From assembly GCA_028688325.1 (NCBI GenBank), contig JAQTYI010000002.1:9395-73394 (forward strand): DNA of 64,000 nt, in the 5' to 3' direction. The notes beneath the pieces are model-generated. The model made no database searches, was not told the origin of the DNA, and saw nothing but the letters and a program-made list of their open reading frames with translations. Source of the stretch: Candidatus Portnoybacteria bacterium. Lineage in GTDB: Bacteria > Patescibacteriota > Minisyncoccia > Portnoybacterales > GWB1-42-6. Position numbers and translations under genes: made by a program. This document shows, piece by piece, positions 12,572-40,002 of the stretch. Position 1 is the first letter of the stretch; each line of letters starts with the position of its first letter.

Positions 12572-12940
12572 TTATTTATTATTTGCCGCTTTTTTTGCGC
12601 CGAATTCTCCGCTCCCGAAATGATGCGCTATCTCGTGGCGCACGGTATCTTGAACTAGTTTTTTGATGGCCTCGGGCGTATGGGCGACCAGTTCAATTGA
12701 ATTTTTAAAAATAGAGATCTTATCAGGCAGCGCCATCGTGTAAGAATTTCTCTGAGTCAGGGGAACCCCTTCATACAGTCCCAATAGGGTCAAGTCGCTT
12801 CTCAATTTCAGCTTTCTCAATTGTTCATTATTGGGCTCATCTTCAACCACAATCGCCACATTTTTCAATCGCGCCAAAAATTCATCCGGAATCTCGTCTA
12901 TTGCCTCCGCTACCAGTTTTTCAAATTCCCCTCTATCCAT
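12572..12940 (-). CDS. Zincin-like metallopeptidase (DUF1025-type)
   Basis: TVRHEIAHHFG HExxH motif in a ~120-aa protein. Probable true start MDRGEF at 12940; the upstream MNIAEFLLPGM is encoded by a dispersed repeat. Confidence 0.6.
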   Translation of the reverse strand: MDRGEFEKLVAEAIDEIPDEFLARLKNVAIVVEDEPNNEQLRKLKLRSDLTLLGLYEGVPLTQRNSYTMALPDKISIFKNSIELVAHTPEAIKKLVQDTVRHEIAHHFGSGEFGAKKAANNK

Positions 12941-13072
12941 ACCAGGTAGTAGAAATTCGGCTATATTCATAAATCCGAATGGACTTGATCAAGCTTGCCA
13001 AACTCCATGATTTTATCTATTTTTACCAGTTAGCGATGATTCGGTTAAACAGCCGAATTTTCACTACCTGGC
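12941..13072. repeat. MITE-like element with terminal inverted repeats (copy 1 of 3)
   Basis: ccaggtagtagaaattcggct … agccgaattttcactacctgg termini around a ~100-bp core shared with the copies at 33036-33180 and 33512-33650. Confidence 0.7.
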
Positions 13073-13120
13073 ATATATATTTCATTATACAATAAAACAG
13101 AGAAAGATTAAAATAAAATG

Positions 13121-17310: not shown

Positions 17311-17877
17311 TTATTTAAAGCGCACAGGCAAGGAAATTGAATCTTCAAATTCCGGCAAGCCGGACGGATTGTCTTTTTCCAAAACCAGCATTCCGGTGGC
17401 GGTTTGCGGCAAAGTAAATTCCAGCACGACTTCAAAGGGCACAAATTCCGTAGTCATCCAGTCGCTTTGCGCCTGCGCCGGTTTGATTGCCAGCTGCCTG
17501 CCTTGGCCATCAAATAATTTAACGGGGAAAGACGCTTCAAAATACCATGCGCCCCTGGCCCGGCCGGCCACTTTTAGCGGGCTTTGCACGATGGCGTTAA
17601 GTAGTGGCGCGCTGACTTCGATTTTTTCGTTGCCGACCGGAACAATTTCAGTAAAATTTTTATCGCCCGCTCGGCACCGGCGCGGATAGCTTTCCATAAC
17701 GGGATTGCCCATTGCTGCGCATTTTTCAAAGCTGTCTATCACTCTGTTTTTTTGCCAATCAAACACCAAGCACCAATCGCTCTGGCACCAAAAAAGAAAA
17801 ACTGACACCATCGCTCCGGCGCCAACCAAAATTATCGTTAAAATAATATAAATTGATTTCATTTCTGCTTCGTGCAA
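17311..17877 (-). CDS. Exported Gmad2/Ig-like domain protein
   Basis: N-terminal TM or signal peptide. [20 protein letters not shown] resembles the Gmad2 immunoglobulin-like domain. Confidence 0.4.
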
Positions 17878-18155
17878 TGTCTTAGCCCTGTGGAGGTCTG
17901 ACTTCCACAGAATTTAATCAGATCTATCTTCTTTTTTCTCGGCCAAGTTTTAATTTCCGCTTCGCGGCGGCGGGCCTTTAAGAGAGCTTTGAATTTTTCC
18001 GAGTGTTTTAGGATAACGGGCCGGCGGATTTTAGTGTAGTGCGCGCCTTGCTTGGAATTGTTGTGCTGATGCAATCTTTTTTCCAGGTCGTTGGTGCAGC
18101 CGACATACAGGGACTTGTCGACGCATTCGAGGATGTAGGTATAGTAATATGGCAT
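17859..18155 (-). CDS. GIY-YIG nuclease family protein
   Basis: YYTYILEC…[17 protein letters not shown] is a canonical GIY-YIG motif. Confidence 0.85.
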
Positions 18156-32585: not shown

Positions 32586-33041
32586 CTAAATCTCTTCCAA
32601 CTTCCCTTTTTCCACCAATTCCTTATGCAACTCTCCCACCAGCGCGTCATGGAATTCATCCATCAAATACGGGTTCTCCAGGTCGCGCGCCACATCCGCC
32701 GCGTAGACGACGCCTTTTTGAAACGCCAAATCAACCAAATTTTTTAACTGCTGGTTCTTTTCCAGGCGCTTGAATTGCCTTATTTCGGGCTTTGCCTCTT
32801 TGGCGGGAAACGGCAGTGCGCTAACGGGCTCCGCTGGAGCGGCTGAAGATAAAACGGCCGGTTTTTCCGCCGCGACAACCTGCTCCAAAGGCCTCTCTTT
32901 TTCTTTTTGCAACGCCGCTCTTTTGGCCGCTATTTGTTTTTCCAAGTCCGCAAGTTCCATCTCGGCCGAACTTAACGGCGCGGGAGGCGCCGATAGTGTT
33001 TCCGCCGATTGGTCGACCGGTTCGCGATATAGGTCTGGCAT
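32586..33041 (-). CDS. Hypothetical protein
   Basis: 151 aa, A/P/E-rich. The start codon abuts a MITE terminus. Confidence 0.4.
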   Translation of the reverse strand: MPDLYREPVDQSAETLSAPPAPLSSAEMELADLEKQIAAKRAALQKEKERPLEQVVAAEKPAVLSSAAPAEPVSALPFPAKEAKPEIRQFKRLEKNQQLKNLVDLAFQKGVVYAADVARDLENPYLMDEFHDALVGELHKELVEKGKLEEI

Positions 33042-33180
33042 ACCAGGTAGTAGAAATTCGGCTATATTTAATTAAATTCTATGGGCTTAATTAAAATCGC
33101 CAATTTTCCTATTTTTATTAAACTTCACCAGCCAGCAATAATTCGTTTAAACAGCCGAATTTTCACTACCTGGCATAGGG
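33036..33180. repeat. MITE-like element (copy 2 of 3)
   Basis: Same inverted termini and core as 12941-13072. Confidence 0.7.
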
Positions 33181-33212: not shown

Positions 33213-33512
33213 TCATACCAGCAAAGAATCCACTGTTTTTTGCATGTCTTGCTTAAAGTTCGCCACTTCTTCTTTGACCAGCTCTTCGTGGTTGGGAATA
33301 TTAGCCGCCAAAAATTGGCTTATTTTTTCCGTGTCTTCTCCCAGGGCCTCAAGCTCGCTCTTTTTTTCCTCGGCCAGCGCGCCGATGAGCCGTAGCGTTA
33401 TCCTTTTTAAAACCGCTTCGGTCATGGCGGTTAAAACCTCTTCTTGGCGCTCTTGCGGTAATTCCGCAATTCCCAATTCTTGAAAAATATTTTCCTCGAT
33501 TTGAGTTGGCAT
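33213..33512 (-). CDS. Hypothetical small helical protein
   Basis: Probable start MPTQIEENIF. The extra upstream MNIAEFLLPGM is encoded by a MITE. Confidence 0.4.
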   Translation of the reverse strand: MPTQIEENIFQELGIAELPQERQEEVLTAMTEAVLKRITLRLIGALAEEKKSELEALGEDTEKISQFLAANIPNHEELVKEEVANFKQDMQKTVDSLLV

Positions 33513-33650
33513 TCCAGGTAGTAGAAATTCGGCTATATTCATAAATCCATCTGGATTTAATTAGCTTACCGAATTCTATAATTTTATTTTTGTTTACCAG
33601 ATAATCTTAATTCGGTTAAACCGCCGAATTTTCACTACCTGGCATTTTTT
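33512..33650. repeat. MITE-like element (copy 3 of 3)
   Basis: Same inverted termini and core as 12941-13072. Confidence 0.7.
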
Positions 33651-33666
33651 TTATTTTAATATTTTA

Positions 33667-36618
33667 TTATTTGTTTTCAAGGTGGCCCTGGTTAAAATCC
33701 GCCGCTATTTCCTTATCGGCGTTTTCCATATATTTATTGAAAAATTCTCCCACTGTCATATTTTTTACTCCCCCAATACCTTGCTTGCCAATGCTATTTC
33801 TCAAAAATTTGGCCATCTCGGCGTATTTTGTATAGTCGCTATAAGTCAAGCCGAGCCAGCTGGAACCGGGTAAATTTAACTGTGATAGTTTGGCTTCGTG
33901 CCAAAAACGGCTCAAGGCGTATTTATCCTCGTAGGCCTCCGGCGGTATGGCATCCAATATCTTACCCAGCGGCACTTTGGCTGCGGCCTTGAAGGTTTCT
34001 TCGGTTAAAATATTCGGTTCAACCAGGCGGGAAACTATTTTTTTTATCTTTTCATCCGCCGGGCCCGCATTGTCCAGCGCTCCATTCAATATATGCTCTT
34101 TTGCGGTCAAATCGGGAACACCCGAACTCGCCGCCCTTAAAAAGGTTGCCTTATCGCTCAAATGCATATGCCCTTGTCCGTCCAATTCCACAAAAGCGCC
34201 CCGGCCAAGATGGCGCATGGCCTTGGCATAACCCTCGGCATTCGCCGTAAAACCGTGTTTAACCAAATTTTCCGCCATACCCGGCTTAGCCAATTCTCCC
34301 TCCGCGCTTTTTAACCACAGCTGATGCGCGCGAGTTCCGGCCCATTTATTGATATCTGTTTTACCGTCCCAGCCAAAGGCCTTGGCCACATCCGGCTTAG
34401 CCCTGAAATTATCAATTATCGCGCCTTCCGGACCTCGGCTGCCGATTTTCAAATTAAAAATTTCTTCGCCGGCTTTGGCGCCGCCCGGCGAAGGCAGAAT
34501 TTCCGGATTCACAGCATCGCCCCCGAGAATCGGCATTCCCGATTTTGGCACATTGCCCGGCAAATGGCTCTTCATTTCGCCGTACCCCGTCTCTCTCAAT
34601 GCTTCTTTTTCTAAATCAAAACCGCCGGTCAAAGGGTGTTTTGCAAAATCGATCGTTTTTTCAGCCGCAGCTTTTATTTTTTCAATCATTTCTTGGCCGA
34701 ATCCAGAATTGATTCCATTGCGCACTGCTTGAGCCAACGCACCGCTGCCGACCAGTGCGCCCAGCGTGCCGGCCAAAACGAACCGCCTGTTTTTTTCGCT
34801 TTCCTTGGCTTTTATCAACTCAAACAGCTTATCGTCCAGTTCGCCATTCTGATTTTTTAGCGCTTCCAAAAACTTCCCGCCAAATTCCTTGCTTAATTTT
34901 TTCTCCGCGCTTTTTTCCTGAGATCTTTTAATGAGCTGCTCGGCGCCGGCTGTCATCATTGAACCGCCAAGCACGCGCAAAGCTGCCTGCCCCGCAAAAG
35001 CCGCCGAGACAATCGCCGTGCTGCCGACCAAACCGCCCGCCAAACCCCCAACAAATAAACCGGCCGAAACCGCCATCTTATATTTAACCGGCAGTTTTTT
35101 ATACCAATCCGTGAATTCCTCGGCTTTTTCATTCATATACCGGCGCGCCGCGCCCATTTGCTCAATTTGCTTGTCGGACTTCAAAGAGTCAATTTTTGCC
35201 GCCTCGCGCAAAGTCACGGCCAGCAAGATATCCTTGGCGTATTTTTCCAGTTCTTCCTTGATGTTTTCGTCCGACTTTCCAGCGGCTTTCAATTCCGCCG
35301 TTTTCCAGGCGATTTCTCCGTCGCGATATGCTTTTAAAGACCCCTTTAAACTTTCTTGCGCCTTTGAAAAATTTTCCCGCGCCTGGGCGGCCTCCGCTTG
35401 TGCGCCGCCGATGTTTTCCTGCCTGACCGGCACTCGGGTTTTGTCGCCTTCAAAACTCGTAAAGCCGCCGACAATGAATTCCTTGATTCTGGCCCGCAAG
35501 CCAGTTAACTTATTTTCTTCTTTTTCCGCCCTTTCTTTGGCCAGCTCCGCCGCCACGAAATTCTCACGCGCTTTATCCAGCGCGGCTTCGGCTTGTTCTT
35601 TTTCGGCTTTTCTGTTGGCTTCTTGGACCTTTTCGAGGCCGTATATTTCTTTTTCTTCGTCTTTGCCGTAGTTTTTGCGCTCGCCCAGAGGATGCTCTTC
35701 CGGCTCTATTTCCCTTTCCGCTGACAACCCCGTTTCGTCCGCCGCATAAGGCCGAGCTGTTGGATGCATCTTGTCTTCCAATATCTCATTTATCTCTTCT
35801 TGCGTCTTATCTTCTGTTATCCGAGAATCAGTTTTTTTCTCGCGTCCCTCCGAAGCGTTTTCTTTTTTCTCCTGCGCTTTTCGCTCCTCTTTTTCGTTTT
35901 CTTTTTTGCCTCTTTCATCCGCTTTATATTTTTCCTTCATTTTTTCCGCTATGCCGCTCACTTCGCCGCTATGAATTACGCCGCGCAATTCACTTTCCGT
36001 CCGGGCGATTAAATCATAAAGTTCTTTGGGCGCATCTTTTTTATTGTTCAAAAAATCGTAAAGTTGCTTAAAGGCCCCTTCCAGCCGATTCACCAGTTCT
36101 TTTTTCTTGTCCGGCAATATAATTTTTTCTTTTTTGCCCTCCTTGGTTTTTTCGCCGCCCGCCTCGTTTTTCGCCGCTTCCAGCGCATCCGCTTCCCTGA
36201 CATCGCGGAGTTTTTTGGTTTTTTTCTTCAACAGAGAAATTTCCCCTTTAAACTCGCCCGGGTTCTCTGTTTTTTCTTTTTTGTCGACAAAGTTGGGGTC
36301 AAAAAAAATCTCGTTTCTTTTTCGCTCGAGCGCTTGATAATAATTTTCCAGTCCGGACAATAAATCCTCGGTCCGCTCGCCATTGGCATAACGATCCAAA
36401 AGAGCGCTGTTGTCCCTTACAAAATCAAACAGCTCCTTCTCCTGCGCCAGAGAGATAAATTTATTTTTTAAAGCCATCTCGGCTTTAAATTCCAGTTTAT
36501 TGCCGTTTAATCTGTCTATCTTGCCCACCATGTCTTCCACTTTATTGTCCAAATCTCTCATTTCTTCCGCCGACAAGCCGCTTTTTTGCTCACCGGAAAT
36601 ATATTTGCTTCCGCTCAT
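33667..36618 (-). CDS. Large (983 aa) K/E-rich coiled-coil membrane-anchored protein
   Basis: N-terminal ~500 aa highly charged coiled coil. Central Gly/Ala-rich TM segments. C-terminal ~350 aa globular region. Confidence 0.5.
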   Translation of the reverse strand: MSGSKYISGEQKSGLSAEEMRDLDNKVEDMVGKIDRLNGNKLEFKAEMALKNKFISLAQEKELFDFVRDNSALLDRYANGERTEDLLSGLENYYQALERKRNEIFFDPNFVDKKEKTENPGEFKGEISLLKKKTKKLRDVREADALEAAKNEAGGEKTKEGKKEKIILPDKKKELVNRLEGAFKQLYDFLNNKKDAPKELYDLIARTESELRGVIHSGEVSGIAEKMKEKYKADERGKKENEKEERKAQEKKENASEGREKKTDSRITEDKTQEEINEILEDKMHPTARPYAADETGLSAEREIEPEEHPLGERKNYGKDEEKEIYGLEKVQEANRKAEKEQAEAALDKARENFVAAELAKERAEKEENKLTGLRARIKEFIVGGFTSFEGDKTRVPVRQENIGGAQAEAAQARENFSKAQESLKGSLKAYRDGEIAWKTAELKAAGKSDENIKEELEKYAKDILLAVTLREAAKIDSLKSDKQIEQMGAARRYMNEKAEEFTDWYKKLPVKYKMAVSAGLFVGGLAGGLVGSTAIVSAAFAGQAALRVLGGSMMTAGAEQLIKRSQEKSAEKKLSKEFGGKFLEALKNQNGELDDKLFELIKAKESEKNRRFVLAGTLGALVGSGALAQAVRNGINSGFGQEMIEKIKAAAEKTIDFAKHPLTGGFDLEKEALRETGYGEMKSHLPGNVPKSGMPILGGDAVNPEILPSPGGAKAGEEIFNLKIGSRGPEGAIIDNFRAKPDVAKAFGWDGKTDINKWAGTRAHQLWLKSAEGELAKPGMAENLVKHGFTANAEGYAKAMRHLGRGAFVELDGQGHMHLSDKATFLRAASSGVPDLTAKEHILNGALDNAGPADEKIKKIVSRLVEPNILTEETFKAAAKVPLGKILDAIPPEAYEDKYALSRFWHEAKLSQLNLPGSSWLGLTYSDYTKYAEMAKFLRNSIGKQGIGGVKNMTVGEFFNKYMENADKEIAADFNQGHLENK

Positions 36619-38867: not shown

Positions 38868-39120
38868 AAATGTGTTGTATCAATCAGCGAGGGAGTCGGT
38901 TTTAAAACGCTCAATCCGATGAGTCAAACTTTTGGCGAGGCGTCCGCTGAGAAAAATGTCGCACACGAACTCCCTTGCAATTAGCGAGGGAGTTCGTTTT
39001 AAAACGCTCAATCCGACGAGCGGGCACGGTTTCCCGCTTTAGCGGGAAGAGCGAGGAGGATTGGCGAGTGAAATTTTCCTGGCTGGGGAAAATTTCACGA
39101 TTTTAAAACCGACTCCCGAG
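38868..39120. repeat. Composite/nested MITE region
   Basis: Two ~38-bp direct repeats (gcgagggagtYcgttttaaaacgctcaatccgaYgag) and an inverted terminal copy (ttttaaaaccgactcccgagcg). Internal copies of the gcgaggcgtccgctgagaaaaatgtcgc element. Confidence 0.55.
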
Positions 39121-39123
39121 CGC

Positions 39124-40002
39124 TTATTTATAATAGACCTTATTCGCCATCCTCAAATCCACATATTTCAGCCCGGCTCCCTTATTTTTTATTTCATTAT
39201 TCAGTAAAGCGTCCAAAACCCTGGCCTGCGCTTGGGCAGCGCGGCTTAAATTAAAATAGGCCAGCCAGCCCTCGCCGGTAAAAGCGACCAAGCTTTGGGT
39301 GTCGCCGGCCATCAGAGTGAAACCGGACAGATCCGCTCCGCTTTCCCGCAGTTGTTTTTTTATTTGCGCGGCAAATTTAATTGTTGAAGACGCGACCGCG
39401 CTGTTGCCAGGGCCGATATTTTGGCCCGGCTGGCTGAAAAATGTCGGCAAAGCGGTGCCAAAAATTTCCGGCGCTTCGCGGAAAACCAATCCGTCATCAT
39501 CCATAAAGAAGCATCCGTTGCTTTGCGGCATAAGAAAAAACATCTCCGTTGTTGTCGCGCTGTTCCCGGTCTGCGCCGCGTTTTGGCACCAAAAAGCCGC
39601 TGCCTGGCGCCCTTTCACAGTTATTTTGACCCCCTTGAAGATGTTTTTATCCACCGCCACGCTAACTGCCTCGGGAAAAGATCCCATAATCTTATCAGAT
39701 AGGTCGCTGCTGGAAAACATCAGCCAATTATCCCTGGGAATCTTTTTCCATATCTTCGCCCGGAAAAAATCATCCGCCAGTTCCTGCGCTTGCGCCGCAG
39801 CGGTGAAATTCACACCCTCGACGGCCAGTTTTTTTATCTTCAGGACAGGCGAGAAAATCGCCAAATATAAAAGCCCGGTCAGGGCTAATAGCAAGATTCC
39901 CAACCAAAGCCATACCCGCCAATTGATTGCGAACTTACGGCGGCTGGCTTTAACCGAGATAGCAAAAATTTTAGAGCGTTTTTTTCTCCGATAAGCGAAC
40001 AT
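39124..40002 (-). CDS. ftsQ: Cell-division protein FtsQ/DivIB-like (POTRA)
   Basis: Single N-terminal TM followed by a POTRA-like domain. Confidence 0.5.
   Translation of the reverse strand: MFAYRRKKRSKIFAISVKASRRKFAINWRVWLWLGILLLALTGLLYLAIFSPVLKIKKLAVEGVNFTAAAQAQELADDFFRAKIWKKIPRDNWLMFSSSDLSDKIMGSFPEAVSVAVDKNIFKGVKITVKGRQAAAFWCQNAAQTGNSATTTEMFFLMPQSNGCFFMDDDGLVFREAPEIFGTALPTFFSQPGQNIGPGNSAVASSTIKFAAQIKKQLRESGADLSGFTLMAGDTQSLVAFTGEGWLAYFNLSRAAQAQARVLDALLNNEIKNKGAGLKYVDLRMANKVYYK

Follow-up and report, generated by a model that had tools for sequence, protein, structure and literature searches.

The nearest described system to the element family reported here is, judged by its architecture as published, Ssn together with its Ssn-related-motif (SRM) repeats. 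Ssn proteins, which belong to CDD family cd10448, are single-domain GIY-YIG nucleases of ~94 aa that cleave ssDNA only and in a site-specific manner, and whose genes are flanked by cognate hairpin repeats that are scattered genome-wide (Chenal et al. 2025, PMC11893778). The authors of that study themselves remark on the IS-like arrangement, NTS-ssnA-NTS; mobility was not shown, and their paper mentions neither Patescibacteria nor start codons (PMC11893778). The likeness to the present family lies in a single-domain GIY-YIG gene of ~94-100 aa, in a cognate repeat on both sides of it, and in the dispersal of that repeat almost always outside genes. Ssn repeats are, however, local hairpins of 20-50 nt, whereas the present family has two 20-bp arms pairing across 25-270 nt, and by eye its repeats are unlike the Ssn/SRM consensus CGTCATTCCCGCG..GCGGGAAT. 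Unlike Ssn as described, the present family also displays true terminal inverted repeats (TIRs), a TSD, insertion polymorphism, insertion at start codons, sharing of the ATG and a repeat that is translated.

Several other systems share individual traits. In the Correia elements (CREE/nemis) of Neisseria, RNase III binds/cleaves the hairpin of the transcript, altering expression of the adjacent gene (PMC2649163). Like the present family these are MITEs of ~100-150 bp with TIRs and a TSD, often lie just upstream of genes and form a long hairpin when transcribed, but their sequence is unrelated, with a characteristic 26-bp TIR and a TA duplication where the present family has another TIR and a 4-bp TSD. 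Correia elements moreover create promoters, bind IHF, show no tie to start codons and lack a known coding partner, all unlike the present family. REP/REPIN sequences with their RAYT (HUH Y1) and the IS200/IS605 elements are similar in that a small enzyme gene lies between the palindromic repeats on which its product acts, that non-coding copies are dispersed, and that recognition is probably hairpin-dependent; in the present family the nuclease would likewise act on its repeats. RAYT, however, is an HUH tyrosine transposase whilst the enzyme here is a GIY-YIG hydrolase, and IS200/IS605 elements produce no TSD and carry subterminal hairpins instead of TIRs. Free-standing GIY-YIG homing endonuclease genes, namely the seg genes of T4 and, in fungal mitochondria, ORFs joined in frame to host genes (PMC2988022), are likewise selfish nuclease genes wedged between or onto host genes, using host expression signals and spreading to the same site in related genomes. 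Their products have ~200-270 aa, with the GIY-YIG domain N-terminal and a DNA-binding domain C-terminal, whereas the present protein has 97-103 aa, and unlike the present family they have no TIRs, TSD or MITE derivatives and colonise few loci. Finally, Rickettsia palindromic elements (RPEs) are palindromic MITEs tolerated in or at coding regions with the frame preserved (PMC10969869); RPEs are in-frame peptide insertions within ORFs, whereas the present family sits at the start codon, usually ends in a short uORF, and has one fused copy seen. Neither start-codon targeting nor a GIY-YIG partner comes up in a 2024 review of prokaryotic MITEs, and targeted full-text literature searches found no published description of a start-codon-inserting GIY-YIG/MITE family. 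The present family combines a MITE with a repeat-flanked, Ssn-like nuclease, and the larger result is that the MITEs are tied to a tiny GIY-YIG cassette sharing the start codon of the host.

The window, by which we mean the whole 64-kb stretch of Candidatus Portnoybacteria DNA that was analysed, contains six exact matches to the 20-nt terminus CCAGGTAGTRRAAATTCGGC, against 0.01 expected by chance. These delimit three elements, E1, E2 and E3 (Table 1), which on the minus strand read (T/A)ATG, CCAGGTAGTGAAAATTCGGC ... GCCGAATTTCTACTACCTGG, (T/A)ATG. The first-pass annotation had reported three repeats with inverted termini, each directly 5' of a minus-strand gene; the repeats are real, all six termini being exact and the borders slightly tighter than first drawn, and the position holds for E1, E2 and E3. 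The terminus had also been thought to overlap the ATG of the gene, but one base (T or A) stands between the two. Each element has 20-bp TIRs and is flanked by a 4-bp direct repeat (TATG, TATG and AATG, respectively), and the arms are unlike at two central positions, GA versus AG (GA versus CT as complement), with the same asymmetry in all three. The cores are related, with a mean column identity of 77% (flanks counted in), and the only coding content of these MITE-sized elements (129-131 bp) is a 9-codon uORF, MPGSENSAV, present in each. That annotation had not included the TSD of 4 bp, the upstream ATG with which this uORF begins, or the connection with a GIY-YIG nuclease cassette.

Table 1 Coordinates of the three window elements, their duplicated tetramers, host genes and neighbouring transcription signals
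Feature	Position in window	Strand	Remarks
E1, non-coding long-form element, 130 bp	12942..13071	-	5' TIR 13071-13052, 3' TIR 12961-12942
E1 upstream TSD copy TATG	13072..13075	-	ATG 13074-13072 opens uORF MPGSENSAV-stop (13074-13045)
E1 downstream TSD copy TATG	12938..12941	-	ATG 12940-12938 is the Zincin_1 gene start
Zincin_1 (metallopeptidase) ORF 3' of E1	12572-12940	-	
Host extended -10 TGTATAAT	13084..13091	-	9 nt upstream of E1 upstream ATG; 7 nt in empty allele
bipA terminator	13143-13126	-	upstream of host extended -10 at E1
E2, non-coding long-form element, 131 bp	33043..33173	-	
E2 upstream TSD copy TATG	33174..33177	-	ATG 33176-33174 opens uORF MPGSENSAV-stop (33176-33147)
E2 downstream TSD copy TATG	33039..33042	-	151-aa gene begins at ATG 33041-33039
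151-aa ORF 3' of E2, no Pfam match	32586-33041	-	
E3, non-coding long-form element, 129 bp	33514..33642	-	also found in strain L056
E3 upstream TSD copy AATG	33643..33646	-	ATG 33645-33643 opens uORF MPGSENSAV-stop (33645-33616)
E3 downstream TSD copy AATG	33510..33513	-	ATG 33512-33510 is the DUF5663 gene start
DUF5663 ORF 3' of E3	33213-33512	-	
Host promoter-like TTGAAA-16-TAAAAT	33653..33680	-	10/12 consensus matches; ends 7 nt before E3 upstream ATG

Comparison with related loci shows that the insertions are polymorphic and precise, and that E1-E3 have been recently mobile. The E1 site is empty in loci L046 and L047, where the BipA-Zincin_1 intergenic region aligns on both flanks and lacks exactly 130 bp plus one TATG; the Zincin_1 protein of these loci is 94% identical to that of the window. 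In L056, a near-identical strain that keeps E3, the E2 site is unoccupied: it reads CCCTATGCCAGACC, with a single TATG, and the flanks are ~99.8% identical to the window across the neighbouring 591 bp. Together with the TIRs and the TSD, these precise empty sites (E1 and E2) bear out the MITE-like, mobile nature that had been claimed for the repeats. Empty sites also exist for the coding form of the family, described below, whose site at AMMECR1 holds a single TATG between otherwise identical flanks in L135/L136. The coding element is furthermore identical at 311/311 positions in L036 versus L038 (2004-2314) amid flanking genes that are ~80% identical, a pattern in the aligned loci which implies recent horizontal spread into the same site, although this identity may instead stem from co-assembly artefact in related samples.

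At the sites orthologous to E3 and E2 in L052, a more distant genome, both positions (1002-1153 and 1621-1771) are filled by 150-bp variants, which have in common a 20-bp hairpin insert that is not in the window copies. Copies within one genome are more alike than copies at orthologous sites, a pattern that points to turnover, renewed insertion at hot spots or gene conversion.

We searched for the terminus in one genome per species and in metagenomes (596 Gb), which yielded ~120 loci. With five solo matches set apart, all named carriers are Patescibacteria, e.g. Portnoybacteria, several carrier records being labelled just "bacterium" or having doubtful bin labels. The five non-Patescibacterial 20-mer matches (L006, L010, L015, L021 and L032) have no partner arm, amount to about the number expected by chance in 596 Gb, and were discarded. 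No copies were found in the viral contigs searched. After removal of duplicate flanks, the non-coding family, which is widespread among Patescibacteria, comprises 88 copies in a short (64-72 bp) and a long (~125-170 bp) form. A perfect 4-bp flanking repeat, predominantly TATG, is present in 64 of the 88, and because the non-ATG flanks TCAA, TTGA, CTTG, TTTG and AATA also agree at all four positions, the TSD is 4 bp long. Its first base is mismatched in some copies (CATG/TATG, five times), and the upstream ATG has been lost in a few (TACG, TATA), so the corresponding AUG1 of the transcript is not strictly required.

Placement relative to genes is strongly biased. An ATG was counted as start-like if the ORF beginning there runs for 60 codons or more and, in the reconstructed empty site, no other ATG precedes it in frame. 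Insertions at ATG-type sites account for 71 of the 88 copies, and 62 of these 71 lie at a start-like ATG, as compared to 11% of 3573 TATG sites in the same loci (binomial p ~1e-49, an overstated value, since orthologous copies in related metagenomic genomes are not independent, though the effect is very large). Orientation to the gene is forward in 56 copies and reverse in 6 (p 3e-11, inflated by the same non-independence of orthologous copies). The biased placement and consistent orientation first claimed for the window copies are thus found across the family, and random position or orientation, looked for as the outcome that would speak against the claim, was not seen among the 88 non-coding copies. 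When compared to control starts, insertion sites more often have T at -1 (84% vs 43%), are richer in A+T upstream (82% vs 65%) and more often have CCA after the ATG (13% vs 2%). From these data the target appears to be overwhelmingly (T)ATG in A/T-rich DNA, in practice the start codon of a gene, and the orientation fixed. The 9-codon uORF is conserved in 23/56 copies.

Short forms in L016 and L069 are flanked by CATA..CATA, and the asymmetry of their repeats is reversed relative to the gene, whilst the interior (a GC hairpin, then an A/T spacer) keeps its usual gene-relative orientation. It is as if the arms alone had been swapped, e.g. via recombination between the inverted repeats.

The coding form of the family is a cassette of 310-316 bp, composed of a 20-bp left repeat, one gene for a GIY-YIG nuclease of 97-103 aa, and a 20-bp right repeat. 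Locus L025, for example, has the same repeats and TATG around 314 bp with a single ORF, the 98-aa product of which matches PF01541 at residues 13-82 (E 9.5e-16) and contains no further domain. The flanking ATG shares the frame of the nuclease ORF, the left repeat (ATG CCA GGT AGT GAA AAT TCG) being translated as MPGSENS. The junctions, ...ttATG-CCAGGTAGTGAAAATTCGAC...TAA-GTCGAATTTCTACTACCTGG-TATG-host gene, are constant in the contexts fetched, of which HrcA-element-GrpE-DnaK and Metallophos-element-AMMECR1 are examples. On this layout, the upstream ATG copy lies in frame with the nuclease ORF and the downstream copy restores the host start codon. Nuclease genes between these repeats and TATG are found in L025, L035, L036-L045, L098 and L141. 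One contig carries both a MITE and a coding copy in L025, in tandem, and in L035, with the MITE at the hrcA start and the coding element at the grpE start; the 64-kb window contains no coding copy.

A protein search recovered 1239 clusters of nuclease homologues. The repeat-encoded PGSENS motif is present in 118 of the best 120 of these, right after a Met in 113/120 and at residue 2 in 102/120. The internal Met before the GIY-YIG domain is replaced by Ile, Val, Thr or Ala in about 11 of the same 120. Translation must therefore begin at the flanking ATG. The GIY-YIG motif positions (YVY, LYIG, R, EHN, RRE) are kept at a mean pairwise identity of 75%. The closest solved structures are those of the UPF0213 proteins 1ywl and 1zg2 (E ~3e-5) and of SLX1, whilst an NCBIfam search with the nuclease returned no specific family (TIGR01453 scored 19 bits, with a cut-off of 56). 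The MITEs share termini and TSD with the coding element; to judge from sequence, their partner is this nuclease and not a recognised transposase.

Further GIY-YIG genes and repeats occur in the same genomes. The window itself has a 98-aa single-domain GIY-YIG ORF at 17859-18155 on the minus strand, which overlaps the start of the next gene and has a 23-nt hairpin, CTGTGGAAGTCAGACCTCCACAG (17888-17910), in its 3' end; considered as a partner of E1-E3, it was rejected, being 38% identical to the repeat-linked nucleases and having none of the family's repeats. An intergenic repeat at 38887-39124, AGCGAGGGAGTYGGTTTTAAAACGCTCAATCCGA, consists of two direct copies and one partial inverted copy, with arms (38891-38907 and 39101-39117) that are 100% complementary. 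A second kind of GIY-YIG cassette, at 295-564 of L035, has the inverted repeats CCCGCCCAAATTTTT / AAAATTTAGGCGGG and begins right after an ATG, with no TSD visible; from its 3' end the MurC-like gene downstream gains a new start, an in-frame ATG (MSIKNLGG-), in a real N-terminus donation. GIY-YIG genes between other ~20-bp inverted repeats (GCCCCTCACTTGAAAAGGATA; CCCAGCACTTTCTTTGCGCTA) were seen in L022 (100-420 and 1080-1330), L115 and L054/L079, some of them adjoining the 5' ends of tRNA genes. As these other genes have different flanking inverted repeats, the repeat-nuclease-repeat arrangement looks like a general architecture in these genomes.

We then consider how host genes may be expressed across the insertions. 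The element had been proposed to supply a promoter or an RBS, which the sequences do not favour: there is no SD-like sequence in the 3' end, and internal promoter-like matches are weak and differ in position between copies. A Shine-Dalgarno sequence provided by the element, or drawn closer by its stem, was also rejected, as SD-like motifs are rare at both insertion sites (3%) and control starts (13%). Because the host -10 lies 7-9 nt upstream of AUG1 (Table 1), the mRNAs of E1 and E3 probably begin at or next to AUG1, that of E1 being leaderless or having a very short leader; at E3, we infer from the host promoter site a leaderless transcript from the duplicated ATG. Across the family, a -10-like hexamer is found 5-9 nt upstream at 37% of sites versus 18% of controls under a loose definition, and at 12% versus 7% under a strict one. 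A leaderless promoter as the cause of targeting fits E1 and E3, but this enrichment is too modest family-wide, and we rejected it.

Folding of the element RNA together with the start codon, a check suggested in the first-pass annotation, predicts a ~20-bp arm-to-arm stem containing an A·C mismatch and a single G·U pair (dG -46 to -48 kcal/mol, z -5.3 to -6.6), the base of which includes both AUGs. For the coding element, too, folding over its full length predicts the terminal stem. A few compensatory changes preserve the complementarity of the arms, and a consensus fold of 33 long-form copies revealed the terminal stem only, with no conserved interior structure. Searches of Rfam at gathering and permissive thresholds gave no match, the sole sub-threshold match scoring 17 bits against a cut-off of 80. 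Given this predicted fold, the idea of the terminal stem as a regulatory hairpin is plausible.

The element had further been credited with donating a shared N-terminal peptide, MNIAEFLLPGM, to its host genes. The longest ORFs do begin with this peptide at E1 and E3, but not at E2, where TTA/AAT replaces the ATG and the longest ORF of the host gene begins at the real ATG. That the element provides host proteins with a working alternative start and a 10-aa leader, MNIAEFLLPG, is an explanation that we regard as unlikely, although it has some points in its favour. E1, E3 and 25 of 52 long-form copies have an in-frame ATG 30 nt ahead of that of the host, just beyond the 3' arm and within sequence predicted to be unpaired, and the other cassette kind in L035 does give MurC a new start. 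In addition, one short copy (L093, 1971-2039; 68 bp) is stop-free and fused in frame to its host gene, such that translation from the upstream ATG would lengthen a 662-aa host protein by 24 residues. Against this, the leader ATG is missing in E2 and in every short form, is conserved no better than the adjacent bases, and has no Shine-Dalgarno-like sequence at proper spacing. The orthologues of the E1 host protein (121-123 aa, N-terminus M[DEQ]R(E/D)xFEKLV) begin at the duplicated ATG, which is therefore the native start of this gene, and the same ATG serves as host gene start in the empty E1 allele. The MNIAEFLLPGM "leader" thus reads as an artefact of taking the longest ORF and not as a donated N-terminus, whilst its ATG, present in about half of the long-form copies, may occasionally be used as a start.

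A second possibility is that the sequences are cis-regulatory leaders of the host, in which hairpin and uORF are under selection (as attenuator, thermosensor or for start-codon sequestration) and mobility is irrelevant or ancient. The strong predicted stem reaching both AUGs, the conservation of the uORF in part of the copies, and the filled E2- and E3-orthologous sites of the more distant L052 would all fit, but E2 comes and goes among strains that are nearly identical and E1 among orthologous loci, the copies have a TSD, the interior structure is not conserved and finds no match in Rfam, and the host genes have unrelated functions (peptidase, DUF5663, HrcA, GrpE and AMMECR1, besides many more), so we hold this reading to be decidedly improbable. 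We give still less credence, amounting to very little, to an ordinary MITE moved by a conventional transposase (e.g. IS5- or IS1182-like, with 4-bp duplications) for which the GIY-YIG gene is a captured passenger. TSDs of 4 bp are typical of several IS families, and GIY-YIG nucleases are without known strand-transfer activity, both of which speak for a conventional enzyme; however, no IS-sized element bounded by CCAGGTAGTGAAAATTCG...CGAATTTCTACTACCTGG-type ends was found in ~130 loci, the in-frame fusion of repeat and nuclease is kept across >100 protein clusters whose identity has fallen to 65-75%, and other GIY-YIG genes in the same genomes have their own, different flanking inverted repeats. 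The repeat-nuclease layout also agrees with the Ssn/repeat architecture (PMC11893778).

Taken as a whole, the evidence makes it highly probable that E1-E3 are non-autonomous Patescibacterial MITEs, that the coding form of their family is the ~310-bp GIY-YIG cassette, and that both insert at start codons with a 4-bp duplication. We posit that the repeats are the substrate of the GIY-YIG protein, supplied in trans in the case of the MITEs, and that structure- or sequence-specific cleavage at the junctions between element and TATG would leave 4-nt staggered ends, which host repair or ligation would join. Such staggered cuts around the non-palindromic TATG, at both borders and in the target, would yield the 4-bp duplication, precise excision and the fixed orientation. 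The enrichment at start codons would reflect a target preference (TATG, A/T-rich DNA, some preference for CCA) plus selection against other insertions, two contributions that genome data alone cannot separate.

For expression, the coding element would use the promoter, initiation region and ATG of the host to produce its nuclease. The two repeats would pair in the mRNA as the ~20-bp stem, with both AUGs held at its base. A ribosome would initiate at AUG1 on the native signals, translating the nuclease ORF or, in E1-E3, the uORF, and unwind the 5' arm; it would terminate after nine codons in the window copies and, in the coding element, 21 nt short of AUG2, and so expose AUG2. Host gene expression would in this way stay coupled to the native initiation signals. 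As an alternative to unwinding, RNase III may cut the stem.

To our knowledge, GIY-YIG enzymes are hydrolytic nucleases and none performs transposition. We advance tentatively, and at slightly under an even chance, the fuller proposal that the family is a previously unrecognised class of autonomous element, possibly the smallest (~310 bp). Its sole gene would encode the ~98-aa GIY-YIG protein, integration would be start-codon-specific and 4-nt staggered without a conventional transposase, the ATG and initiation signals of the host would be taken over, and the repeats would serve both as DNA ends and as a translation-coupling mRNA stem, with E1-E3 as derivatives.

If the GIY-YIG protein mobilises these elements, a hydrolytic nuclease of ~100 aa can drive transposition-like spread and, if true, the newly described Ssn-type nucleases gain a selfish-element biology. 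Insertion into a start codon in a manner that regenerates the ATG is an unusually clean route to expression for a parasite, as the host gene is spared. The elements also affect how Patescibacterial genomes are annotated, being the source of hundreds of predicted "MPGSENS..." proteins and of spurious extensions of the MNIAEFLLPGM type. They are, finally, natural test cases for how uORFs and 20-bp stems at the 5' end bear on translation in organisms with little Shine-Dalgarno use.
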